NCBI GenBank assembly: GCA_023953845.1
Contig: JAMLJC010000002.1
Span: forward strand, 55,421-119,420
DNA length: 64,000 nt
Direction: 5' to 3'
Source: Rhizobiaceae bacterium
Lineage (GTDB): Bacteria > Pseudomonadota > Alphaproteobacteria > Rhizobiales > Rhizobiaceae
Below the pieces are notes generated by a model, which saw nothing but the letters and a program-made list of their open reading frames with translations, had not been told where the DNA came from and did not search any database. Below, piece after piece: positions 5,348 to 49,191 of this stretch (its first letter is position 1; each line of letters begins with the position of its first letter). The position numbers and the translations under genes are program-made.

Positions 5348-5466
5348 GGGCCGTCAGACGACGGTCCGCTATCGTGCTGAGTAAAGCGGATTGCTGCCGT
5401 TCAGCCCAATAGCGTTGGTGCAATCCTGAAGAGAGAGACTAAGTCTCGCTGGTCGACGCGCCGATC

Positions 5467-6402
5467 TCATGCACTTAGTCTCGCCTCACGCATGTCGCGC
5501 CCGGGAGGTGCACCGAACAGGCGCGCGTAGTCGCGGGTGAATTGCGGCACGCTTTCATAGCCGACCCGGTGGGCAGCATGGGCGATGCCTGCACTGTCCA
5601 CCAGCATCAGTCGCCGTGCCTCGATCAACCGCAATTGCTTCTGGAACTGAAGAGGCGACAGCGTGGTGACAGCTCGAAAATGCTGATGGAAGGAGGATTC
5701 ACTCATCCCCGCTACAGCCGCCAGATCCCCGATGCGCAGCGTACTGGCATAGTCCTGGCGGATTAGCGCCACCGCCCGGGCAATGCGATGGGCGTGGGTA
5801 TCGGTGCCGCCAAGTGACCGAATCGCAGCGCCGTGGCGCCCTGTCAGTAGCCAGTAATGCATCTCGCGCAGGAGCGCCTCGCCCAACACTGGCAAGGCTG
5901 TAGGCCGGTCTATGAGCCGCATTAGGCGCAGGGCTGCATCGATCGCATCGGTGTCAGCCTGCTCCACACGGATCGGGACAGTATCGACAGGACGCAGATC
6001 GGCCTCGGTGGACAGCGATCGCAATAGCGATGCGTCGAGTTCCAGCGCCAGCGCGTAATATGGGGCGGCGAGGCTAGCTTCGAGAATCTGGCTGATTGTT
6101 GGAACATCGGCGGTGATAACCAGTGCCTCGCCAGCGCCATAGTCAAAGCTGGTTGTGCCCATGGTCACCCGTTTGCGGCCCTGAAGGCAGATTGCAATCA
6201 ATGGCTTTTGCACGGTCACCTGCAATTCGCCCGGATAGAGCGCGCGAACCGCGCCCAGACCACGAAAGGGCGTTGGCGCAAAACCCGCCCGGTCGGAATG
6301 GGCGTCCGCGTGGCGGCGAACAAGGCCGAGGAGATTGCGCATCGGAAAAACTTCAGGAAATAGCATGATGGTATCAGGCAAGGGATATCGGCTCCTTTGC
6401 AA
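5467..6402 (-). CDS. AraC family transcriptional regulator (AraC_N-type sensor domain)
   Basis: C-terminal double HTH (LAAVAGMSESSFHQHFRAVTTLSPLQFQKQLRLIEARRLM). The start may be an internal Met. Confidence 0.85.
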   Translation of the reverse strand: MQRSRYPLPDTIMLFPEVFPMRNLLGLVRRHADAHSDRAGFAPTPFRGLGAVRALYPGELQVTVQKPLIAICLQGRKRVTMGTTSFDYGAGEALVITADVPTISQILEASLAAPYYALALELDASLLRSLSTEADLRPVDTVPIRVEQADTDAIDAALRLMRLIDRPTALPVLGEALLREMHYWLLTGRHGAAIRSLGGTDTHAHRIARAVALIRQDYASTLRIGDLAAVAGMSESSFHQHFRAVTTLSPLQFQKQLRLIEARRLMLVDSAGIAHAAHRVGYESVPQFTRDYARLFGAPPGRDMREARLSA

Positions 6403-34623: not shown

Positions 34624-35367
34624 TCAACCAAAGTCACGTACGATCGGACTCTCCATCGCGTTTCGGAAGTCGACGAAGAAGCCGGTTTCCTCCAGCGTGA
34701 AGGCCGCTGCTGACGAGGTCGATCCGGTTTCAAGCGCATGCTTCACGCGGGCCAGCAATTCCACGCCGTCCAGCATCTTTTGGTTTACCCGGTTTCGCAA
34801 GATCCGCTCGCGGCTTTCGGCGCTGACGGCACCAGCCGAACGGGCATTGTAGGCATCGATGACGCGGCCCAGATCGCGGCGCGCGTAGAACGTCGCGGCA
34901 GCGATGCCGGCGATCCGGGTAGCGGTTTCGTCGCTGATCAGCGAGCATGCGACCGCGTTGGCCAGCGTATAGCGGATGTTCACCAGCGCTTCCGACAGAT
35001 GGGGGAAATCCAGTTCGGCGGGGCCGTGTTCGATAGCAACCTCGTCATCACGCGTCAGCCGCCCTGTGGCGAAGTCACGGAAGATCGCGCCGATGCCGAT
35101 CATGCCGAATGAGTGCAACTCGGCGGCGCGCAGCGCGCCCATGCTTGCCGCGCCGTATACCGCGCAGCCGCGCGTCATCGCCCACAATATTTCCTTGTGC
35201 AGGACCGAGGGCACGGTCTTGAAGCAACCGTCGACCAGACCGATCAGCCGCGTGCCTGCCAAAGCGGCGCGGTAGATATCGCCGCGCCGGGCCGGCGGAC
35301 GCCAGTCGAACGCCTCATCACGCGGTATCGATCGCAATGTCGGACCGGCAAAGATCACTGGTTTCAT
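34624..35367 (-). CDS. tfuA: TfuA-like protein
   Basis: MKPVIFAGPTL...PPARRGDIYRAALAGTRLIGLVDGCFKTVPSVLHKEILWAMTRGCAVYGAASMGALRAAELHSFGMIGIG...DDEVAIEHGPAE. ATG 35367 overlaps the YcaO stop (ATGA); an alternative ATG is at 35373. Confidence 0.85.
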   Translation of the reverse strand: MKPVIFAGPTLRSIPRDEAFDWRPPARRGDIYRAALAGTRLIGLVDGCFKTVPSVLHKEILWAMTRGCAVYGAASMGALRAAELHSFGMIGIGAIFRDFATGRLTRDDEVAIEHGPAELDFPHLSEALVNIRYTLANAVACSLISDETATRIAGIAAATFYARRDLGRVIDAYNARSAGAVSAESRERILRNRVNQKMLDGVELLARVKHALETGSTSSAAAFTLEETGFFVDFRNAMESPIVRDFG

Positions 35368-36554
35368 CGCCATGCTCCGGCGGATTGCGCCCGCTTGCCT
35401 GGACTGTAGTGGCGAGCGTACGGGAAGGTCTCGAGGCCGGGCACGACGACCCTTGCGAAGGCCAGTTGTGGAGAACGGCTTTTCAGATCCACAGCGATTG
35501 CTTGAGCAAAGCCCGCCGCCGTCAGCCGGTCGAGCAGCCAGACGAGCATCTCCGCCGAAGACCTGCCGGCGCACGCGACTTCGACAAGTGGGACCTCGCT
35601 CGAGCCGAACGGCAATGGCGCGGTCGAGCAGTAATGGCGCGGGCGTAGATCGTCGCGAGCGCCCGAAATCAGCAGAGCACGGGTCTGTATCGCCTCAAAA
35701 AGCGCGCCTTTCAACGCGATGGCGGGAATTGGATGGCAACCTGCGCCATCCGTCGCGATGGCTATGTTCAGGGGACCGTTTCCGCGCTCGACCAGCCGAC
35801 AATAGAAGCAGGGAACCCCAATCTCCGTCGTGATGTCCCACGTGATGACGTCTACGCCGAAACTGAGGCAGTTGCTGCGAAAGATCAGCGCGTCCGCATC
35901 GTCTACGGTGCTCCAGTCGATTCGCGCAAAGCGATCCTTTTGCGACGCATGGAACACCGCGACCGCATCGCCCTCGATGACCTCGCACAATCCATGCAGC
36001 ACCGCTTCGGTCATGTCGGCGCCGCCGCCGAGGCCATTGCTGGATATGACATAGCCGTCATTGCTCCGCTCCGTTTCGACGCGAAAATCAGTGTGAACGA
36101 GGCCAAAGGGCACGGCAGCCAGCGATCCGGAGATCAGTTCGCAGCCAACCGTCATCGCAAGCGAAGGCCAGGGCCTGGTCGGTCGCCGGGCATCGGCGGC
36201 ACGCGGCAATGCAGACAGATCCGGCACGATGCAGCCGCCGGGAAGATCGGAGAAAGGCACCCGATCGGAGAATATCTCGGCATGGAAAATCTCCAGGCCC
36301 TCCATCAATCCGGAGACCCGAGCTTCAGCCAGAGTTGCACCCTTACCGGATGCGATGCTGAGGGCGCGCGAGTTTGGGCGGATGACCGAGACCACGTTGA
36401 GCCCGATTTCGTCCAGCCCGCTGATGTCGGCCACCCGCGTGATGCCCGCCTGCCGCTCCAATGCGCGGCATGCCGCCAGCGTATCGTCGAGGGACGCAGC
36501 GGCCGATGCTCGTCGTGACGTAAAGACCGACGCGGCACTATCTCGGACGATCAT
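35364..36554 (-). CDS. YcaO-like family protein (TfuA-associated type)
   Basis: GITRVADISGLDEIGLNVVSVIRPNSRALSIASGKGATLAEARVSGLMEGLEIFHAE...SSNGLGGGADMTEAVLHGLCEVIEGDA. In-frame start candidates are ATG 36554, GTG 36575 and TTG 36578. The long ORF start at 36659 would overlap the upstream gene. Confidence 0.85.
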   Translation of the reverse strand: MIVRDSAASVFTSRRASAAASLDDTLAACRALERQAGITRVADISGLDEIGLNVVSVIRPNSRALSIASGKGATLAEARVSGLMEGLEIFHAEIFSDRVPFSDLPGGCIVPDLSALPRAADARRPTRPWPSLAMTVGCELISGSLAAVPFGLVHTDFRVETERSNDGYVISSNGLGGGADMTEAVLHGLCEVIEGDAVAVFHASQKDRFARIDWSTVDDADALIFRSNCLSFGVDVITWDITTEIGVPCFYCRLVERGNGPLNIAIATDGAGCHPIPAIALKGALFEAIQTRALLISGARDDLRPRHYCSTAPLPFGSSEVPLVEVACAGRSSAEMLVWLLDRLTAAGFAQAIAVDLKSRSPQLAFARVVVPGLETFPYARHYSPGKRAQSAGAWR

Positions 36555-36582
36555 CGCCGAAGCCGCCGCAATCACCAACCCG

Positions 36583-37287
36583 TCAGTTGCGGCCCATAAT
36601 GACCATGCCGCCGCCGATCTCGACCGGCTCATAGATGGACGCCGCCTTGTCCCCGCCAAAACGCAGTTGGACCGCTCCGGCCACGTTAATGACGTTACTC
36701 CGGACGGCGTTCAGCGCCTTGCTGATTTCCTGATCGACGAGGGCCCATCTTCGGTCATCGAGGTTACGGTCAAACCCCACCAGCGCAATTCCCGGAATTG
36801 CATAAAGCCGCTTGTCCCCCTTGCCGCCGGCGGCGATCGGCGTCATCTCGACCTGGACGAACAGCGCGCCGTTCAGAATCCACTTCTCATCGTCGGTGAG
36901 CTCTTCGCCAAAGAAGTAGTTGCGCAGCGCCGCGCGAAACCGCAACAAATCGTTATCAGAAGACGCGATCGCGTTGAGCTTGGCATTTGCCAGCGCGTCG
37001 GGTTCCACGGCGACGGGTTGGTAGTCCCGAACAAAATCGCTGAAAGCCTTGCAATCCTCCTGGAGGACGCCCCCGCTCACATTAGGTGCCTCGCCCGCTT
37101 TAAGTTTCTCCCTGGCCTTATCGCTGTTTTGGAAGAAGAACGTCATGTCCTTCAGAGAAGTTGGTTTGTTCTGGGTGATCCATCTCTGGTATCGAACGTA
37201 AAAGTCTTCGTTTCCTTCCTCTATCCAAACGCTGGCCTGTGGGTCAGCCGTATATATTGCGCAGAAATTGGGATCACCAGCAGACAT
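36583..37287 (-). CDS. hypothetical protein, 234 aa, no recognisable family; first gene of the YcaO-TfuA cassette
   Basis: Strong SD (GAGGGAGGG) just upstream of ATG 37287. Coding-like composition. No signal peptide, TM segment or cofactor motif recognised. C-terminus ...IYEPVEIGGGMVIMGRN. Confidence 0.7.
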   Translation of the reverse strand: MSAGDPNFCAIYTADPQASVWIEEGNEDFYVRYQRWITQNKPTSLKDMTFFFQNSDKAREKLKAGEAPNVSGGVLQEDCKAFSDFVRDYQPVAVEPDALANAKLNAIASSDNDLLRFRAALRNYFFGEELTDDEKWILNGALFVQVEMTPIAAGGKGDKRLYAIPGIALVGFDRNLDDRRWALVDQEISKALNAVRSNVINVAGAVQLRFGGDKAASIYEPVEIGGGMVIMGRN

Positions 37288-39747: not shown

Positions 39748-40647
39748 ATGAGAACTCTCGAAATCGGCAAGTTCACGGTCGACAGCATCGTTGAGCTCGA
39801 ACGCGTGCCGCGGGCGCCGGAGTGGCTGTTCCCGAACGTCACGCGTGAGATGGTGGAGCAACACAAGAAGAAGCTCGGCGCAAACTTCGTCAACCAGAGA
39901 ACGAACGAGCTCTACTTGTGCTTCCAGAGCTTCCTAATACGGGCGCACGGAAAGAACATTCTGGTCGATTCTTGCAACGGCAACCACAAGTCGAGGAAAA
40001 CTATCCCATTTCTCGATCAACTCGACAGCCTTGCCTATCTCAGCAATCTGGCCAGGCTGGGCTTAAAGCCGGACGACATCGATCTAGTGTGTTGCACGCA
40101 CCTACACACGGACCACGTTGGCTGGAACACCCGGCTGGACAATGGGCGCTGGGTTCCGACCTTTCCCAATGCCAAATATCTGATGTCGGCCAGGGAGTTC
40201 GATTATTTCAAGCGCCAGAATGCCGAGGATCCGGAGAAGCCGGCGAATCACGGGGCCTTCAATGACAGCGTGCTGCCCGTTCACGACGCCGGGCTAGCGC
40301 AACTGGTGGAACTTGCAGAAGACAAGAGCGTGCTACTGGACGAGGGCATCGAGCTCCAAGCAGCGCACGGACACTCCGTCGGCCACATGGCCATGAGGCT
40401 CGCATCGCAGGGCGCGTCAGCAATCTTGTGCGGCGACGCCATTCATAGTCCCATCCAGTTCCTGGAACCACAGCTTTACAACATGGCCGATCTGTTCCCC
40501 GAGCAGGCGCGACAGACGCGCCACCGCATCCTGTCGGATTGCGCGGCCAATGGTTCCTTCCTGCTTCCGGCCCATTTCCCTTCGCCTACCGCAGCGTTGA
40601 TCGAGGCATGTGACAATGGCTTCGCCTGCCGGTTCGTGGGAGAATAG
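39748..40647 (+). CDS. MBL-fold metallo-hydrolase (lactonase-like)
   Basis: CTHLHTDHVGWN (HxHxDH) plus downstream His and Asp ligands. Confidence 0.85.
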   Translation: MRTLEIGKFTVDSIVELERVPRAPEWLFPNVTREMVEQHKKKLGANFVNQRTNELYLCFQSFLIRAHGKNILVDSCNGNHKSRKTIPFLDQLDSLAYLSNLARLGLKPDDIDLVCCTHLHTDHVGWNTRLDNGRWVPTFPNAKYLMSAREFDYFKRQNAEDPEKPANHGAFNDSVLPVHDAGLAQLVELAEDKSVLLDEGIELQAAHGHSVGHMAMRLASQGASAILCGDAIHSPIQFLEPQLYNMADLFPEQARQTRHRILSDCAANGSFLLPAHFPSPTAALIEACDNGFACRFVGE

Positions 40648-40734: not shown

Positions 40735-41208
40735 CTAGCGGCGCCAGATGTCCCGGTCACGCTCGAAATTGAGTTTCGCCTCGTGGGCCGAAACGACCTT
40801 ATCGACGATCGTCATCAGCAACTCGCGCTCGCGGGCCGTTAGCGGCCCGAGAAGCTTCGTACGCGCCTCCTCGACGAAGGGGCGTGCCGCTTCCAGCAAT
40901 CGGTCTCCCGCCTCGCTCAAGGCCACGTTTCGTGTGCGTCTGTCGTGCTCGCCGATGGTGCGCACGATGAGCTTCTTGGCCTCGAGACGCTCAACGATGT
41001 CTCGTACCGTAGAGGTGTCGAGAACGGAGATTTTCGCGATGGAGATCTGATCAATACCTCCTTTTGCCTTAACGACATTCAGTATCGTGTATTGCAGAGG
41101 GGTAAGCTCAAACTCCTTGAGGCTTCTGATATAGAGCGCCATGGCAACCTGCTGCAGGCGGCGTATCATGAATCCAGGGTTCTTCTCATAAGCAAGATCA
41201 AGATTCAT
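40735..41208 (-). CDS. MarR family transcriptional regulator
   Basis: 157 aa, winged HTH (LTPLQYTILNVVKAKGGIDQISIAKISVLDTSTVRDIVERLEAKKLI). Confidence 0.9.
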   Translation of the reverse strand: MNLDLAYEKNPGFMIRRLQQVAMALYIRSLKEFELTPLQYTILNVVKAKGGIDQISIAKISVLDTSTVRDIVERLEAKKLIVRTIGEHDRRTRNVALSEAGDRLLEAARPFVEEARTKLLGPLTARERELLMTIVDKVVSAHEAKLNFERDRDIWRR

Positions 41209-43325: not shown

Positions 43326-44606
43326 TCAGGTCCGCTTGAAGGCGCCGTTCTCCCAGCCTTCGAACTTGCCGGTGAAGAAATCCACCTTACCGAAGCCGAG
43401 CAGGTTCAGGACCGTATAGCTGTGCGAGAGCTGCAGTCCGCCGCGGGTGAAGAGCACGACGCGCTTGTCGGGCGTGACGCCGGCGTCCGCATAAAGCTTC
43501 TTCAGCTCTTCGGCCGGCAGCAGCACGCGGTCCTTGTCCAGCGTCTTGTCCCAATAGACGTTGACCGATCCGGGGATATGGCCGGCCTGGTAGTCCGATG
43601 GCGAGCGGACGTCGACGACGATGACGCCCGGATCGGCCGCAAGCGCCTTCACGTCAGCCTCGCTGAGGAATTCCGGCGCGTTGTCCGATTGCTTGCCCGT
43701 GCCTTCGAACGTGTAGTTGGCGAGCGAGACCTGCTGGCCGGAGCGCGGGTCACGGCTCCATTCGTCCCAGCTCGCATCGTAAAGCACCACGTTCCTGTAG
43801 CCGAGGTTTTTCAGCGCGAGGTAGTTGTTTGCCGCCGCGACGCCGCTGCCGCAATAGGAGACAACCTCGCGGTCCGGCTCGACGCCCTTCGATTGCAGCA
43901 GCGCGGTCAACACCGGCTCGGACTGCAGCGTCGCATCCTTGTTGAGCAGGCTCGCGGCCGGCAGGGCCTGCGCACCGGGGATATGGCCATCGGCATAGGC
44001 CTCCTCGTTGCGCCCGTCGATGATGACGGCATCCGACGCGCCGACCTTGCCGGCGACATAGGCCTTGTCGACGCGGATGTCGTTCTTCTGGTCGAGCTTG
44101 AAGTCGCTTGCGGCGACCGTCACGGCATCCGTCGACAGATCCTTCTTCCAGGCCGCCACGCCGCCGTCGAGCACATGCGTCCTGGCGCCAAGGCCGGCAT
44201 ATTCGAAGGCGACATAGGCGCGGCCGGGCAGGGCGGTCGTGTCGTAGATGAGGATCGTATCGCCGTATTTCAGGCCGGCGGAGCGGATCTCCTTCTCGAA
44301 GGTTTCGTCGCTGGCGAATTCGTTGCGGATGCCGTCCGCCTCGGACACGTTGAGACGCTGCCAGGGCAGGTTCACGGCGCCGGGAATGTGGCCCTTGGCG
44401 TAGGCGGCTTCGGAGCGGACGTCGACGACTTTGGCGCCGCCGGCGATGAGTTCTTCCGCCTGCGGCGCGGAGACGATTATCGGCAGCGCCGTTTCCGCCT
44501 GCGCGATCGCCGCGGTCATGAGAAACGCGGTGGAAGGTATGACTGCTGACGAAGCGGCGAAGAAGACGCCGGCGAGAAGCTGGGAGCGGAAATCCGAGAT
44601 ATGCAT
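43326..44606 (-). CDS. periplasmic multi-rhodanese-domain sulfurtransferase
   Basis: Start reassigned to ATG 44606, with a signal peptide. Three rhodanese-like repeats (VVDVRSEAAYAKGHIPGAVNLPW; SYCGSGVAAANN active-site loop; VVDVRSPSDYQAGHIPGSVNVYW). Confidence 0.8.
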   Translation of the reverse strand: MHISDFRSQLLAGVFFAASSAVIPSTAFLMTAAIAQAETALPIIVSAPQAEELIAGGAKVVDVRSEAAYAKGHIPGAVNLPWQRLNVSEADGIRNEFASDETFEKEIRSAGLKYGDTILIYDTTALPGRAYVAFEYAGLGARTHVLDGGVAAWKKDLSTDAVTVAASDFKLDQKNDIRVDKAYVAGKVGASDAVIIDGRNEEAYADGHIPGAQALPAASLLNKDATLQSEPVLTALLQSKGVEPDREVVSYCGSGVAAANNYLALKNLGYRNVVLYDASWDEWSRDPRSGQQVSLANYTFEGTGKQSDNAPEFLSEADVKALAADPGVIVVDVRSPSDYQAGHIPGSVNVYWDKTLDKDRVLLPAEELKKLYADAGVTPDKRVVLFTRGGLQLSHSYTVLNLLGFGKVDFFTGKFEGWENGAFKRT

Positions 44607-44702
44607 GGCATGGCCCCTGAATTGATGACCACGCAATAGTCTACAAAGTCGGTAGACAATGAAGTTCGCGTTTTGCGTATTCGACGCGGAAAGCGGAACG
44701 GT

Positions 44703-45428
44703 TTACTGCGCGGGCGGCGGCTCCCAGCCGGTCAGGGCGGGTTCCCAGCCGGGGAACCAGATCAGCAGCTGGATCTGGATGAGACGATCCCAGCCGAGCA
44801 GGATGGCCACGCCGGTCAGCACGATCAGGGCGCCAAGCACACGCTGGATGCGGGTGGAGTTCGCCTGGAACCATGACAGCCGGGTGACCAGCCTGCGGCC
44901 GCCGAGAATGATCGCCGCCATAGGCAGCGCGGTTCCAAGCGAGAATGCGAGCGTGACCAGCACCGCGCCGGCGTCTACCTGCTGGTTCAGCGCCAGCGTG
45001 ATGACGGAGGCCATGATCGGACCCACGCAGGGGCTCCAGGCGAAGCCGAGCCCGGTGCCCACGGCAAGTCCGCCGCCGAACCCGTTGGCCTGCCTCCGGC
45101 CGGCCGGCATGCGGCTGATCAGCCCGCTCGCCCAGCGCTCGAAGGCCTCATGCAGGAGTGGCACGGCGAGCACGAGGCCCAGCACGATGAGGATGATCGC
45201 GGCGAGCAGCCGGTTGAGGTCGGGCGACAGTCCGAGCGAGCGGACCAGGAAGCTGAGCGTCAGCGTCGCCAGCGTGAAGCTGCCGACGAAGCCGACGACC
45301 ACGCCGACCGGCCGCGCCTTGCCCTCCTGCGCGGCGGTCGCGAGGATCACCGGCAGGAGCGGCAGCACGCAGGGCGAAAGCACGGTGATGACGCCCGCCA
45401 GAAAGGCGAAGCCGGCGGTGATAAGCAT
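44703..45428 (-). CDS. ccdA: cytochrome c biogenesis protein CcdA / DsbD-family thiol:disulfide electron transporter
   Basis: Paired membrane Cys motifs (LSPCVLPLLPV and WSPCVGP); 241 aa, polytopic. Confidence 0.85.
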   Translation of the reverse strand: MLITAGFAFLAGVITVLSPCVLPLLPVILATAAQEGKARPVGVVVGFVGSFTLATLTLSFLVRSLGLSPDLNRLLAAIILIVLGLVLAVPLLHEAFERWASGLISRMPAGRRQANGFGGGLAVGTGLGFAWSPCVGPIMASVITLALNQQVDAGAVLVTLAFSLGTALPMAAIILGGRRLVTRLSWFQANSTRIQRVLGALIVLTGVAILLGWDRLIQIQLLIWFPGWEPALTGWEPPPAQ

Positions 45429-45440
45429 CGTTGCGGGAGA

Positions 45441-45902
45441 TCAGGAGGAGGAGTTCTTGTTCAGGCCGTCGACGCCGCCGCTGTTCCACGACTTCACCGC
45501 CCCGCCTTTCTCGTCCAGCAGCACGAACGTGTCCTGATAGGTCACGCCGAACTTGCCCTTCAGCGCCGTTTCCTTGTCGTAGTCCGCGATGACAAGGGTG
45601 ATGTCCGGGTTCACGTCGGCCCAGCGCGCATTGAGTTCAGTGACGGTGGCGCGGCAGTTCGGGCACCAGCTGGCGAAGAAAAACACCACCGTCTTGCCTT
45701 TCGCGGCGAGTTCGTTGAGCTGGTCCTCGCTCTCGAAATTGGTGACGACCGCCTTCCTGGCCTCGGCCGCAGGCGCAGCCTGCGTGACGGTCTCGCCGGT
45801 TGTCTGGGCATGCAGCGGCACAGACGAAGCAATGGCAAGAGCGAGCAGGCGGGCGATGTTTCCGGCAAACGAACGAAAGGTCATGATATGTCCTTGCCGC
45901 AT
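45441..45902 (-). CDS. periplasmic thioredoxin-fold protein (TlpA/ResA-like)
   Basis: Signal peptide plus WCPNC redox motif. Confidence 0.8.
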   Translation of the reverse strand: MRQGHIMTFRSFAGNIARLLALAIASSVPLHAQTTGETVTQAAPAAEARKAVVTNFESEDQLNELAAKGKTVVFFFASWCPNCRATVTELNARWADVNPDITLVIADYDKETALKGKFGVTYQDTFVLLDEKGGAVKSWNSGGVDGLNKNSSS

Positions 45903-46086
45903 GGATCGCGACGCTGGTGCTGAAAATACGCTGGCCCGCCAACAGCCAGAAGGAATACAGTTCTATGAAATGGCAGTTTGTCGGATATATTTTCCGATAT
46001 CCCTGCCTTTTGCGTACATTCCGGCACTCGGCTTCCGCGGGGGTTGAGCCTAAATGAGGCATCGGATTTTCAAGGGAAAGGCAATC

Positions 46087-47007
46087 ATGAAATCCCTGCT
46101 CATCAGCGCCTTCGTAGGTCTCCTCGTCGCCTTCACCGGCGTCGCGCAGGCCGAGCGCCTTACGGACCAGCCGCTGGTCGACACGCAGTGGCTGAAAGAC
46201 CATCTCGGCAACGAAAGCCTCGTGATCCTCGACATCCGCGACAAGGTCAAGGATCAGGACCCGTATGCCGAAGGGCATGTGCCCGGCGCGATCAGCGCCC
46301 GCTATTCCGATTCCGGCTGGCGCGCCCCGGTGAACGGCATCCCCGGCATGCTGCCGCCGAAGGAAGATATCGAGAAGCTCATCCAGAGCCTCGGCGTCAA
46401 CAAGGACAGCCATGTGGTGGTCATCCCGGCCGGAACCAACGCCTCGGAATTCGGCGGCGCCACCCGCGTCTACTGGACCTTCAAGGTGCTCGGCTTCGAC
46501 AATGTCTCGATCCTCGACGGCGGTTATGCCGCGTGGGACAAGGCGGGCGGCGAGCTGACCAAGGAAGCCTCCGCGCCCAAGGGCGCAGGCGATTTTACGG
46601 CGAGTTTCCGCCCCGAGCTTCTGGCGGAGGTGAAGGAAGTGCAGGACGCCATCGCCAGCGATACGAACCTGATCGACGCCCGCTCGGTCGCGCAGTTCAT
46701 CGGCAAGGAGAAGACCAACACCGTTCAGTCGCTCGGCACCGTGCCGACCTCGGTCAACGTCAACTTCGACAAGTTCTATCACAACGACAAGCCCGGCTTC
46801 GCCAGCAAGGACGAGGTCGCTGCGCTGACCAAGGCGGCCAGCGTGTCGGACGAAAAGGGCATCATCACCTTCTGCAACACCGGGCATCTCGCTTCGATCG
46901 CATGGTTCGGCCTGTCCGAAGTAGAGGGCCTGAAGAACGTGCGCCTCTATGACGGCTCGATGGCGGAATGGACCGCCGATCCGTCGCGCGAGGTCGTGGC
47001 GAACTGA
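46087..47007 (+). CDS. periplasmic thiosulfate/3-mercaptopyruvate-type sulfurtransferase (two rhodanese domains)
   Basis: Start at ATG 46087 (MKSLLISAFVGLLVAFTGVAQA). Active-site loop FCNTGHLAS. Confidence 0.85.
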   Translation: MKSLLISAFVGLLVAFTGVAQAERLTDQPLVDTQWLKDHLGNESLVILDIRDKVKDQDPYAEGHVPGAISARYSDSGWRAPVNGIPGMLPPKEDIEKLIQSLGVNKDSHVVVIPAGTNASEFGGATRVYWTFKVLGFDNVSILDGGYAAWDKAGGELTKEASAPKGAGDFTASFRPELLAEVKEVQDAIASDTNLIDARSVAQFIGKEKTNTVQSLGTVPTSVNVNFDKFYHNDKPGFASKDEVAALTKAASVSDEKGIITFCNTGHLASIAWFGLSEVEGLKNVRLYDGSMAEWTADPSREVVAN

Positions 47008-47057: not shown

Positions 47058-48284
47058 TTGGAGACGGTCATGGCTGATATTACCGCGACTCAACTTTCTC
47101 CCTCGACTGCCTTTCGCATCGATCGCGGCCCGGTCACGACCGTGCTCTTCGCCCTTCTGGTTGGCACGATCGCCATCGGCACGCTTGTCGACCTGCGCCA
47201 GGCCGCGCTTTTCCTGATCGGCAGCCTTCTCGGCATCGCGCTCTATCACGGCTCGTTCGGTTTCACTGGCGGCTGGCGCCGCTTCGTTGTGGAGCGCCGT
47301 GGCCGCGCCATCCGCGCACAGATGCTGATGATCGCGGTCGCCGCGCTTGCCTTCATCCCGTTGCTTGCGGGGGGAGAAGCGTTCGGCCGTCCGCTCGTCG
47401 GCGCTGTCGCGCCGGTCGGCGTCTCCGTCCTCGTTGGCGCGGCGATGTTCGGCCTCGGCATGCAGCTCGGCGGCGGATGCGGTTCCGGCACGCTCTTCAC
47501 TGTCGGCGGCGGTTCCTCGCGCATGCTGGTGACGCTGCTGTTCTTCATCGTCGGCGCGGTCATCGGCACGGCGCATCTGCCTTGGTGGCTGGCGCGGCCG
47601 TCTTTGCCGCCGATCAGCCTCGGCACCGAACTCGGCGTGCCTCTGGCGCTGGCCGTGACGCTCGCCGGGCTTGGCGCCGTCGCGGTGTTGAGCGCCTTGT
47701 TCGAGCGCCGTACTCACGGTTCGCTGGAGGTGGCGAAGGCTCCTTCCATAGGGGGCTGGCAGCGTCTGCTTTACGGCCCGTGGCCGCTGGTCGGCGCGGG
47801 CCTCGCGCTCGCCGGGCTCAACATCGCCACGCTGCTGACCGCCGGCCATCCGTGGTCTGTCACCTACGGCTTCGGCCTGTGGGGCGCCAAGGCCGCGCAG
47901 GCGGTGGGCGTTCCGGTCGCGACGTGGGAGTTCTGGACTTGGCCGGCGCAGGCCAAGGCCTTGCAGGCGAGCGTGCTGGAAGACATCACCTCCGTCATGG
48001 ATTTCGGCATCATCCTGGGCGCGGCGCTCGCTGCCGGCCTCGCGGGCAAGTTCGCGCCGAAGGCAGCGCTGCCTTTCGCCTCGCTCCTCGCAGCCGCGAT
48101 CGGCGGCATATTGATGGGCTATGGCGCGCGGCTCTCCTTCGGCTGCAACATCGGCGCCCTGTTCAGCGGCATTGCGTCCGGCAGCGTGCATGGGTGGCTC
48201 TGGCTTGCCTGCGCCTTTGCCGGCAGCCTCGCGGGTGTCTGGCTGCGTCCGCTCTTCGGTCTGGACGGGTTCAGGAAGTCATGA
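47058..48284 (+). CDS. YeeE/YedE family sulfur-compound (thiosulfate-type) transporter
   Basis: Duplicated motifs (GGGCGSGTLF and RLSFGCNIGALFSG); 408 aa, polytopic. Confidence 0.85.
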   Translation: METVMADITATQLSPSTAFRIDRGPVTTVLFALLVGTIAIGTLVDLRQAALFLIGSLLGIALYHGSFGFTGGWRRFVVERRGRAIRAQMLMIAVAALAFIPLLAGGEAFGRPLVGAVAPVGVSVLVGAAMFGLGMQLGGGCGSGTLFTVGGGSSRMLVTLLFFIVGAVIGTAHLPWWLARPSLPPISLGTELGVPLALAVTLAGLGAVAVLSALFERRTHGSLEVAKAPSIGGWQRLLYGPWPLVGAGLALAGLNIATLLTAGHPWSVTYGFGLWGAKAAQAVGVPVATWEFWTWPAQAKALQASVLEDITSVMDFGIILGAALAAGLAGKFAPKAALPFASLLAAAIGGILMGYGARLSFGCNIGALFSGIASGSVHGWLWLACAFAGSLAGVWLRPLFGLDGFRKS

Positions 48285-48613
48285 GTTCACGCAATACGTT
48301 CCTGTTCGGCACGGTCCTGCTGGCCGCCACCGCTGCCGTCGCGGCAGACCATATCGCATCGGCGGGCCGTGCCGCGCCGCCTGCGCAGGCCGCCGCGCCT
48401 GCGCCGACGGCGTCTCCCGCAGAGGAGGCAAATCCCTGCGCAGCGGGCAACCCCTGCGCGGCTTCCAACCCCTGTGCCGCAGGGAATCCGTGTGCGGCCT
48501 CGAACCCTTGCGCCGCCTCGAACCCTTGTGCGGCGGCGCCGGCCGACGCCAATCCCTGCGCAGCTTCCAACCCTTGTGCTGCGGCGAACCCTTGCGCGGC
48601 GGGCGCGCAATGA
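48281..48613 (+). CDS. secreted Cys-rich repeat protein, nine NPCAA units (110 aa)
   Basis: ATG 48281 overlaps the yeeE stop, and TGA 48611 overlaps the next ATG. Signal peptide MSSRNTFLFGTVLLAATAAVAA, an Ala/Pro linker, then NPCAAG/NPCAAS hexapeptide repeats. Confidence 0.7.
   Translation: MSSRNTFLFGTVLLAATAAVAADHIASAGRAAPPAQAAAPAPTASPAEEANPCAAGNPCAASNPCAAGNPCAASNPCAASNPCAAAPADANPCAASNPCAAANPCAAGAQ
48431..48604 (+). repeat. imperfect 18-bp tandem coding repeat (9 units, one with a 12-nt insertion)
   Basis: AAY CCN TGY GCN GCN NNN iterated. The units differ mostly at synonymous positions. Confidence 0.9.
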
Positions 48614-49191
48614 CGACGCCGGAGGATCGCGACCGGGCTGAACAGGAGGCGCGCTACTGCGAGAATATCCTCGCCAAGGGCGGGCTCAACGTTTTGCTCG
48701 AAACGCTGGCGGAAGCGAAATCCGTCGAGGCGTGGTCGCACTATCCGAAGGGAGACGTGTTCGACCCGGAGACCGGCGCGCAATGGTACTATCACGCGCA
48801 TGTCCCGGCCTTCGACGGGGTCGAGCATGGCCACTTCCACTGCTTCGTCCGGTCCGACGAGAAGCAGGGGCCGGTGCATCATCTGATCGCCATTGGCGTC
48901 GATGCGCATGGGCGCCTGCACCGGCTCTTCACCGTGAACCAATGGGTCGTTGGCGATACCTGGCTCGATGCCGAAGCCACCATCGCGCTCCTGCCACGCT
49001 TCGACGTGCAGATGCCGAAGCCCTCCTATCTGGTCAATCGCTGGCTGTCGGCGATGCTCCGCCGTTACGAGCCCGAGATCGCCGACCTCATCCGCGAGCG
49101 TGACAGGGTCCTCGCCTCGCACGTCCCGGCAAATGGTATCACGACGCGCGAGGACAGGTCACTGGAGGTGACCTCGGTCCTGATGATTTGA
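48610..49191 (+). CDS. conserved-looking hypothetical protein with His cluster (193 aa)
   Basis: MTTPEDRDRAEQEARYCENIL...WYYHAHVPAFDGVEHGHFHCFV.... Translationally coupled (ATGA) to the repeat protein gene. I could not assign a family. Confidence 0.6.
   Translation: MTTPEDRDRAEQEARYCENILAKGGLNVLLETLAEAKSVEAWSHYPKGDVFDPETGAQWYYHAHVPAFDGVEHGHFHCFVRSDEKQGPVHHLIAIGVDAHGRLHRLFTVNQWVVGDTWLDAEATIALLPRFDVQMPKPSYLVNRWLSAMLRRYEPEIADLIRERDRVLASHVPANGITTREDRSLEVTSVLMI

Follow-up and report, generated by a model that had tools for sequence, protein, structure and literature searches.

What might a small, apparently exported protein with nine cysteine-bearing repeats be doing between a membrane transporter and a protein of the DUF6969 family? 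The question is raised by a 64,000-nt stretch of Rhizobiaceae DNA (contig JAMLJC010000002.1), hereafter the window, where a Cys-repeat protein gene of 110 amino acids (aa) occupies 48281..48613 (+), directly between a YeeE/YedE-family transporter gene and a DUF6969 gene. The answer reached here comes in steps of decreasing firmness. The open reading frame (ORF) is a genuine gene; Cys-repeat proteins of comparable design are encoded directly upstream of DUF6969 in three bacterial lineages; and the window peptide might be a flexible periplasmic multi-thiol arm that passes sulfane sulfur, or other thiophilic cargo, to YeeE, with loading by a rhodanese, reduction by CcdA and thioredoxin, and DUF6969 acting in the cytoplasm. 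We would give this last reading a probability of roughly 40%.

The ORF translates as MSSRNTFLFGTVLLAATAAVAADHIASAGRAAPPAQAAAPAPTASPAEEA, followed by nine NPCAA units and GAQ, and can be laid out as MSSRNTFLFGTVLLAATAAVAA-DHIASAGRAAPPAQAAAPAPTASPAEEA-(NPCAAx)9-AQ. Its ATG (48281-48283) overlaps the TGA of yeeE (48282-48284) to form an ATGA, and its own TGA (48611-48613) overlaps the ATG of the DUF6969 gene (48610-48612). The 110-aa length, the overlaps at both ends and the nine units are all as an earlier note on this DNA had described them. A Shine-Dalgarno-like AGGAAG within the 3′ end of yeeE (48273..48278, +) could serve the start codon. The encoded N-terminal helix, MSSRNTFLFGTVLLAATAAVAA, occupies 48281..48346 (+), an Ala/Pro-rich linker follows at 48347..48430 (+), and the nine units fill 48431..48604 (+) in an 18-nt register broken by a single 12-nt insertion coding PADA. 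Units begin at 48431, 48449, 48467, 48485, 48503, 48521, 48551, 48569 and 48587, and are thus spaced by six residues, apart from the one interval of ten (NPCAAA plus PADA). The PCAA string occurs nine times in this ORF, versus five times in all six frames of the remaining window.

Could such a repeat simply be non-coding DNA, a GC-rich tandem array that stands open by chance in a high-GC genome? All frames are open at the locus, and gene callers leave the interval empty both in the nearest relatives and in Sinorhizobium meliloti. Moreover, high GC between 43000 and 54000 gives rise to long overlapping ORFs in several frames on both strands (47477-48613, 48121-49191 and 48271-49122), and ORF length alone is uninformative there because so many frames are opened. 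The codons themselves tell a different story. The units use AAT or AAC, CCC, CCT or CCG, TGC or TGT, and all four alanine codons, and when the five shared codons of the nine units were compared in all 36 pairs, every one of the 118 nucleotide differences fell on the third codon position, the first two being identical throughout. Tandem Repeats Finder recovers periods of 18 and 36 with a DNA match of 72-82% between units. Third-position-only differences at this level of divergence indicate an old repeat conserved as peptide rather than fresh slippage, as had been proposed earlier, and the repeats of the window peptide are under purifying selection.

Relatives of the locus point the same way. 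The window DUF6969 protein was scanned against one genome per species, which gave 381 relatives, and the best 80 loci were examined; they include Devosia, Aminobacter, Mesorhizobium, Chelativorans, Pelagibacterium, Sinorhizobium/Ensifer, Nitratireductor and Martelella, among others. In about 70 of these 80 Hyphomicrobiales loci, an ORF of the same type lies between YeeE and DUF6969 and abuts or overlaps the DUF6969 start. Genome loci, the window and metagenome loci together yielded 77 orthologous peptides, and the ORF, its frame, its start and its N-terminus are kept across genera in this set. The nearest relatives of the window, whose DUF6969 proteins are 97-98% identical, encode a 116-aa peptide with ten units, that is, one extra 18-nt unit in frame, and repeat number therefore does vary between strains. 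Because variation is confined to third positions, the frame is conserved in 77 loci and close strains differ by one whole in-frame unit, the ORF is a genuine coding gene whose frame is under purifying selection. Together with the ATGA coupling at both ends, these observations effectively refute the non-coding reading. At one locus, in Mesorhizobium sp. 1B3 (peptide at 5459-5965 versus 4227-6131 in L020), the frame changes inside an SPCAA repeat, through either an assembly error or a natural frameshift.

Comparison of the 77 orthologues also defines what is constant in the peptide. They contain 654 cysteines in total, between 1 and 21 per protein, in 1 to 21 units that fit [A/S/N]-P-C-[A/S]-A. 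Proline precedes the cysteine in 100% of cases, A or S follows in 99%, and A stands at +2 in 97%, while position -2 is A in 46%, S in 34% and N in 17%; the commonest Cys-Cys spacing is six. The earlier choice of NPCAA as the defining motif therefore survives in part: the core is invariant as P-C-[A/S]-A, but asparagine is a minority residue, and NPCAA is one dialect of the family motif [A/S/N]-P-C-[A/S]-A. Nor is a string of many cysteines essential, as the earlier description might have implied, since one orthologue (L058) has a single Cys. A C-terminal polyproline tail of the APPPPP type occurs in 33 of the 77. A protein search added the true orthologues P0002, P0004 and P0005, which share the N-terminus and have fewer units, and whose contigs carry the order rhodanese, Sulf_transp (YeeE), peptide, DUF6969; the window peptide's own sequence was absent from the matches of that search.

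The gene has been systematically mis-annotated or left unannotated. In the assemblies of the nearest relatives, gene callers leave the 344-nt interval between YeeE and DUF6969 empty, and the annotated S. meliloti megaplasmid lists no coding sequence at the peptide site, in a gene table known to be incomplete. In L172-L176, the stretch between YeeE and DUF6969 that lacks a listed gene measures 340-370 nt. In addition, several DUF6969 proteins in the databases (P0218, P0152, P0112, P0141, P0144 and P0146) bear spurious N-terminal extensions that represent the repeat read in the wrong frame. An example is the 317-aa entry of Aminobacter niigataensis, with its Arg/Leu/Cys-rich extension.

Where would the product act? 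Its hydrophobic stretch terminates in A-x-A, a signal-peptidase-type site followed by ADH, and export to the periplasm is probable. The earlier note had called this segment a signal peptide; an N-terminal helix for export or anchoring is indeed predicted, but it may instead be an uncleaved membrane anchor. Among the 77 orthologues, R-N-T-L-L-F-G is conserved at 83-100%, with the positions of R-N-T-x-L-F-G at 97-100%. The anchor option is kept because this degree of conservation and the small-xxx-small pattern of the helix are unusual for a plain signal peptide, and such an anchor may dock on YeeE. An AlphaFold2 model, which is weak evidence in that its alignment held four sequences, places a helix at residues 3-28 and gives the rest, including the linker, a predicted local distance difference test score (pLDDT) below 50, which is consistent with a disordered tail rich in Ala, Pro and Cys. 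Past the hydrophobic stretch, every orthologue has an Asp, followed in 86% of them by His; cleavage after A-x-A, if it occurs, would leave an X-Asp-His N-terminus resembling an amino-terminal Cu(II)/Ni(II)-binding (ATCUN) site.

Taken further, the helix might be the functional part, and the peptide a small membrane-anchored accessory subunit of YeeE whose Cys/Pro-rich tail is a tolerated spacer. Conservation of the helix goes far beyond that of ordinary signal peptides, small-xxx-small spacing is frequent in it, and the tail varies greatly in length and composition, down to the presence of polyproline in fewer than half of the orthologues. We regard this as highly improbable, however, since P-C-[A/S]-A is near-invariant at 654 cysteines, the window repeats are under purifying selection, tail homologues in a distant clade and in Burkholderia (described below) carry ordinary and unrelated signal peptides, and the peptide persists where YeeE does not.

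The genes around the peptide provide the first clue to its function. Pfam and NCBIfam matches identify, in the usual order upstream, a two-domain rhodanese with a signal-peptide-like N-terminus, probably a periplasmic sulfurtransferase (46054..47007, +), and the YeeE/YedE-family transporter (PF04143; 47058..48284, +), which differs from TsuA and YedE. The divergently transcribed gene at 45441..45902 (-) encodes a thioredoxin-like protein whose N-terminus resembles a signal peptide, and beyond it on the same strand lie a CcdA/DsbD-type membrane electron transporter (44703..45428, -) and a three-domain rhodanese with a hydrophobic N-terminal segment, probably exported (43326..44636, -). The order rhodanese-YeeE-peptide-DUF6969 is found in nearly every Hyphomicrobiales genome locus uncut by a contig end, and in metagenome contigs too. 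Among 84 loci, YeeE is present in 76, rhodanese in 75 and the CcdA-thioredoxin pair in 20; a close orthologue of the three-domain rhodanese (73-76% identical) occurs in only two (L007 and L010). Neighbour clustering found no other conserved neighbour or regulator beside the Hyphomicrobiales module. Genes 7-13 kb upstream of the module in the window include a YcaO-domain gene (35364-36659, -), a metallo-beta-lactamase-fold gene possibly of the persulfide dioxygenase type (39748-40647, +) and a MarR regulator (40735-41208, -).

The exceptions to this order are instructive as to which genes stay together. In one rearranged cluster (L033), a peptide with four DPLAYSPCSAA units still follows YeeE, while YeeE is missing from another locus (L069), where the rhodanese, a peptide bearing 19 PC motifs and DUF6969 are kept, and a third (L013) has DUF6969 with neither peptide nor YeeE. 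On pSymA of S. meliloti 1021 (L171, 1275774-1286325), DUF6969 and a 124-aa peptide ending in polyproline are both intact, but YeeE can be detected only as its final 19 aa; the full order is present in other strains of S. meliloti (L172).

Aligned to YeeE of Spirochaeta thermophila, the window transporter keeps the equivalents of Cys91 and Cys293 (in GGGCGSG and FGCNIG); its length is about 400 aa, and its best NCBIfam match, which is sub-threshold, is the selenium-linked YedE/FdhT. YeeE requires a cytoplasmic partner (PMC11073785). The earlier note had found no gene for a TusA/YeeD-like partner, and none was detected here among the window ORFs, although the test was a weak one. The peptide is hardly a replacement of that kind: TusA/YeeD proteins are cytoplasmic, of about 75-80 aa and marked by CPxP, and the peptide has an export or anchor helix and no CPxP. 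The arrangement thus resembles YeeE(TsuA)-YeeD(TsuB) in the transporter superfamily, the two indispensable cysteines and the translational coupling of a small gene to yeeE, but differs in that the window partner is probably exported and lacks a TusA fold, and in that its YeeE has no Cys opposite residue 22 of the S. thermophila protein.

The most consistent neighbour of the peptide is the downstream gene, which the earlier note had left unrecognised. It encodes a DUF6969 protein (PF22308, E 3.5e-72) of 193 aa without a signal peptide (48610..49191, +), carrying H62, H64, H73, H75, H77 and H91 together with Cys17 and Cys78. The family comprises about 830 clusters at 50% identity (E <= 1e-3), and no signal peptide was seen in any clade examined. 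A confident AlphaFold2 model built from 52 sequences (pLDDT 93.8, predicted template modelling score 0.90) begins with a helix, continues with a sheet of five strands and with C-terminal helices, and closes with one more strand, and a Foldseek search of the PDB with this model gave no match (best E 0.44). A cupin fold had been guessed from HxH...H, but the modelled sheet and helices and the empty PDB search do not support it. Invariant residues include H62, H64, E72, H73, H75, H77 and H91, which lie on neighbouring strands and probably form a metal site; this HxH...EHGHFH cluster is retained in a distant clade, in Azospirillum and in a tandem-duplicated member. Cys17 is mostly retained and Cys78 is not. 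In two proteins (P0222 and P0270) the domain is tandemly duplicated, a hint that the unit acts as a dimer, and in another (P0340) it is fused to a long coiled coil, a transmembrane segment and a C-terminal domain.

A second line of evidence comes from outside the Hyphomicrobiales. The protein search also returned many unrelated proteins with NPCAAK-type tails. Among them are single-haem cytochromes c assigned to the SoxA/TsdA Pfam family (PF21342), a DM13 protein, and some proteins, about 188 aa long, that carry repeats at either end. One of these cytochromes (P0086) is encoded directly upstream of a distant DUF6969 protein (L089), 37% identical to that of the window. When this distant protein was scanned against metagenome contigs, 80 loci were kept, and in 69 of the resulting 81 loci (including L089) an ORF with at least three xPCx motifs lies within 1.5 kb of DUF6969, almost always directly upstream on the same strand; most exceptions lack upstream sequence. 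The ORFs take two forms that often occur together, namely a peptide of about 100 aa with an ordinary signal peptide and KNPCAAK repeats, and a cytochrome c with repeats at both ends. Around their cysteines, position -2 is N in 90%, +1 and +2 are A in 79% and 73%, and +3 is K in 61%. A PDB sequence search with the cytochrome gave only weak matches in the CxxCH region, so its SoxA/TsdA label rests on Pfam/NCBIfam sub-family scores.

The consensus operon of this clade reads ECF (extracytoplasmic function) sigma factor, DUF3379, cytochrome c-NPCAAK, NPCAAK peptide, DUF6969, a secreted 157-aa protein and YeeE, with no rhodanese found. The YeeE protein is 50% identical to that of the window and so belongs to the same subfamily. 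Where at least 700 nt of downstream sequence is available, 31 of 63 loci encode the 157-aa protein; it stands between DUF6969 and YeeE (L131:5702-6178 and 30 other loci), contains Cys residues and has a C-terminus of the form '...YVYSCPLNPTPDYKLVV'. Occasional neighbours include bufferin precursors (DUF2282, six loci), FGE-sulfatase-like proteins, DUF3179, glutaredoxin, an ArsC-like LMWPc protein and a merR-merT-merP-merA operon. One subclade (L089 and L091-L094, with the mer operon at L093:6583-9194), which combines the ArsC-like, DUF3179, glutaredoxin and mer genes, resembles a metal-resistance island. Genes with the FGE-sulfatase domain adjoin DUF6969 in eight loci (L121, L133, L138, L141, L146, L158, L168 and L169), sometimes between the NPCAAK genes and DUF6969, and a representative has a lipoprotein-like signal; FGE (formylglycine-generating enzyme) is a Cys-oxidising enzyme family.

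A third dialect was found on a Burkholderia glumae plasmid (p947s2p, L178), in the order thioredoxin, CcdA, ECF sigma, zf-HC2 anti-sigma, major facilitator superfamily transporter, 89-aa peptide, DUF6969, MTAP and TIGR04283/TIGR04282 genes. The peptide consists of a signal peptide followed by KCGAKCG...KCAPKCAPKCAPKCAAQ, with repeats of the KCAPKCA type, and the DUF6969 protein is 30% identical to that of the window. As in the distant clade, the signal peptide is ordinary and unrelated to the N-terminal helix of the window peptide. In B. glumae and L089, DUF6969 adjoins arsenosugar-biosynthesis-type annotations (TIGR04282/TIGR04283, radical SAM with DUF3641), MTAP and a TVP38-fused FAD oxidoreductase. 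The association is not without gaps in either direction. In Azospirillum brasilense Sp7 (L177), DUF6969 follows an Mla-like operon with no Cys-repeat ORF nearby, and four loci have NPCAAK proteins without DUF6969 or YeeE within 7 kb (L085, L087, L088 and L090); those of L087/L088 and L090 adjoin multihaem cytochromes, ECF sigma and redoxin genes. In L085, a 79-aa lipoprotein-like NPCAxK peptide (P0094, 3492-3731) lies 42 nt upstream of a bufferin operon (BufA1-MNIO-HvfC_N/DUF2063-DoxX), where it may be an additional substrate of MNIO, an oxidative enzyme dependent on multinuclear non-heme iron, or a functional companion of the bufferin.

Judged by these sequences, the window peptide belongs to a new family, defined here by a signal or anchor helix, Ala/Pro-rich low complexity containing at least one P-C-[A/S]-A or KCA unit, and a location directly upstream of DUF6969; the window, the 77 Hyphomicrobiales loci, 69 of the 81 distant-clade loci and B. 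glumae all show this combination. Pfam and NCBIfam gave no match for the peptide, the distant-clade NPCAAK peptides or the 157-aa secreted protein, which bears out the earlier view that no named family fits. An Rfam scan of 42-50 kb matched no family either. Full-text literature held nothing relevant on NPCAA-type strings, DUF6969 or PF22308, the supplements of the MNIO landscape paper contained no NPCA strings, an S. meliloti ECF-sigma paper had nothing on the peptide locus, and exact-sequence look-ups of P0099 and P0073 returned no record. The searches thus turned up no family model for the repeat protein, and no paper on it, on DUF6969 or on their association.

How might such a peptide work? 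The conserved core of the module in the window lineage consists of sulfur-handling families, rhodanese and Sulf_transp, and there a sulfane-sulfur carrier appears to be the best-supported mechanism. The periplasmic rhodanese would take sulfane sulfur from thiosulfate or a similar donor and persulfidate the Cys arms; in the second operon type, the SoxA/TsdA-like cytochrome c fused to repeats could load them oxidatively. The arms would then deliver what they carry at YeeE's periplasmic entrance, and the two conserved cysteines of the transporter would pass it inward; on the cytoplasmic side DUF6969 would receive or process it, taking the role of the absent TusA/YeeD. Finally, CcdA and the periplasmic thioredoxin, which adjoin the module in the window, in 20 loci and in B. 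glumae, would re-reduce oxidised arms, as SoxV/SoxS do for SoxY. The single-Cys orthologue favours a carrier over a chelator, as SoxY too has one Cys. The cargo could alternatively be Se, As(III), Hg or Cu.

The Sox system provides the closest parallel. In a published model, persulfidated periplasmic SoxYZ delivers to the YeeE-like SoxT1A and from there to a cytoplasmic sulfurtransferase (PMC11582611). SoxY carries its Cys on a flexible arm of small residues (GGCGG), is loaded by a SoxA-type cytochrome and is re-reduced by a CcdA homologue and a periplasmic thioredoxin, and parts analogous to these are present in the window, with a SoxA/TsdA-like cytochrome domain fused to repeats in the second operon type. 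By analogy, the role of the peptide may come closest to that of a SoxY-type carrier, or else to that of an oxazolin-type precursor. The differences are equally clear. Neither the Ig-like domain nor the C-terminal GGCGG arm of SoxY was recognised in the peptide (no Pfam/NCBIfam match; the P-C-A-A motif is internal and repeated), which lacks homology to SoxY or SoxZ and any folded domain, and has many arms instead of one. Loading would be by rhodanese, the cytoplasmic partner would be DUF6969 and not TusA, DsrE or a rhodanese, and no soxZ, soxAX, soxB or other sox genes lie nearby, the SoxA/TsdA-like domain being confined to the distant clade.

Several observations weigh against a carrier that serves YeeE. 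The link to the transporter drawn in the earlier note holds in that the gene order is near-universal among uncut Hyphomicrobiales loci, and in that a 50%-identical YeeE accompanies the second operon type; but Cys-repeat proteins precede DUF6969 even without YeeE, and the association of the peptide with DUF6969 is tighter than that with YeeE. The transporter is absent from L069, from the L089-L094 group and from B. glumae, and in the distant clade 12 of the 38 loci whose downstream sequence reaches 2.6 kb or more have it, or 19-24 of 81 by ORF clustering. The window YeeE falls far short of the NCBIfam thresholds for TsuA and YedE, and has Gly opposite residue 22 of the S. thermophila protein, a position that is Ala in the matched chain and probably corresponds to the first of the three conserved cysteines of TsuA-type proteins (PMC11582611). 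Cysteines are not universal in DUF6969, which resembles no known sulfurtransferase. In other lineages the module adjoins genes of metal(loid) stress (bufferin, mer, ArsC-like, arsenosugar-annotated, ECF sigma). Lastly, that a cytoplasmic protein is so often encoded right after exported peptides makes action before export the simpler assumption.

This last point leads to another way of reading the locus, as a system akin to RiPPs (ribosomally synthesised peptides with post-translational modifications), which we consider possible but rather doubtful. DUF6969 would be a new cytoplasmic metalloenzyme or dedicated chaperone that recognises the P-C-A-A type of motif and modifies or holds its cysteines in a pre-protein before Sec export. 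Once mature, the product would serve in the periplasm as a metallophore or as a redox-active polymer, with YeeE and rhodanese as lineage-specific accessories. Precedent exists for Sec-signal precursors with repeated Cys, as MNIO enzymes convert cysteines of Sec-signal bufferins and of many-Cys EGKCG oxazolins into thiooxazoles (PMC11626156, PMC12452194). Three divergent lineages place the Cys-repeat ORF directly upstream of DUF6969, each with its own dialect ([A/S/N]PCAA, KNPCAAK in 69 of 81 loci, and KCAPKCA), start and stop codons of the pair overlap or nearly so, every Cys has a strict sequence context, and DUF6969 combines the lack of a signal peptide with a universal HxH...EHGHFH cluster on adjacent strands and no known fold. 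Furthermore, one NPCAxK lipoprotein-like peptide, P0094, heads a bufferin BufA1-MNIO-DUF2063-DoxX operon. Yet DUF6969 occurs without a nearby Cys-repeat ORF in A. brasilense Sp7 and L013, NPCAAK proteins occur without DUF6969 within 7 kb in L085, L087, L088 and L090, and the motif differs between clades while the His cluster is constant. Some substrates would have to be entire cytochromes c, no peptide-recognition domain or protease is evident, and metal binding by DUF6969 is itself a prediction.

Likeness to bufferins and oxazolins extends to the Sec signal, the short repeatable Cys motifs (recognised here by inspection and conservation), the adjacent gene for a putative cytoplasmic metalloenzyme, and neighbourhoods with ECF sigma and DoxX genes (PMC11626156, PMC12452194). 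The motif is a different one, however, and the adjacent DUF6969 has an unmatched fold. The peptide gave no Pfam match to DUF2282, and its motif differs from EGKCG. No MNIO (PF05114) or DUF2063 was found among the module genes and the window ORFs scanned, the region past 49191 being read but not Pfam-scanned, nor in the Hyphomicrobiales neighbour clusters; adjacency to both is limited to the unrelated P0094. Stated in full, and with equal reserve, the proposal would be that DUF6969 founds a new class of cytoplasmic His-cluster metalloenzymes which install a modification of a new kind on cysteines, namely those in the P-C-A-A or K-C-A repeats of peptides and cytochromes exported by Sec, and that the window gene encodes a precursor in a new, widespread family of ribosomally made periplasmic polymers derived from poly-thiols, parallel to MNIO and bufferin yet independent of them.

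A further reading, named as an alternative in the earlier note too, takes the Cys string as a set of unmodified periplasmic thiols that buffer or relay soft metals or metalloids (Cu(I), Hg(II), As(III), Cd, selenite or tellurite), kept reduced by CcdA and thioredoxin, which would sequester a toxicant or hand it to a Cys-lined channel much as MerP hands Hg to MerT. Modules elsewhere adjoin ECF sigma/anti-sigma pairs, bufferin operons (six loci and L085), a merRTPA operon, ArsC-like LMWPc, glutaredoxin and arsenosugar-type genes; the window rhodanese has a sub-threshold match to the ExtH rhodanese of selenite/tellurite reduction, and the best NCBIfam match of its YeeE, likewise sub-threshold, is the selenium-linked YedE/FdhT. 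We nevertheless consider this reading unlikely. The only constant neighbours in the window lineage are sulfur-family genes and not metal genes, orthologues with as few as 1-4 cysteines would chelate poorly, and cysteines spaced by six with Pro and Ala between them are unlike CxC and CxxC, the usual metal-binding Cys motifs. Comparison with metallothioneins and heavy-metal-associated (HMA) domains of MerP or CopZ agrees, as the peptide has no CxxC and no Pfam HMA match. MerP-MerT does share the logic of a periplasmic thiol that hands over to the Cys of a membrane protein and then to a cytoplasmic acceptor, but the peptide lacks the HMA fold and GMTCxxC, and the canonical mer operon of a few loci is no more than a neighbour. 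Even so, the bufferin, mer, ars-like and ECF-sigma neighbours in other lineages keep both the metal(loid) and the peptide-modification readings alive, and these are not fully exclusive of the sulfur-carrier reading.

For the biology of YeeE-type importers, the sulfur-carrier reading would fill an acknowledged gap, as sulfur reaches SoxT 'by unknown means' according to the SoxT paper (PMC11582611); the module is a concrete and genetically testable candidate for periplasmic sulfur delivery. Should the RiPP-like alternative prove true, it would represent new peptide-modification chemistry and a categorically new case. Under any reading, DUF6969 is assigned its first partner and context, and a whole class of genes is exposed that automatic annotation either overlooks or reads in the wrong frame as part of DUF6969. 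Tractable organisms carry the module: it is found on Sinorhizobium meliloti megaplasmids, in Aminobacter, Devosia and Mesorhizobium, and on Burkholderia glumae plasmids. Taken as a whole, the occurrence of Cys-repeat/DUF6969 modules in three bacterial lineages points to an undescribed thiol-based system of the cell envelope.

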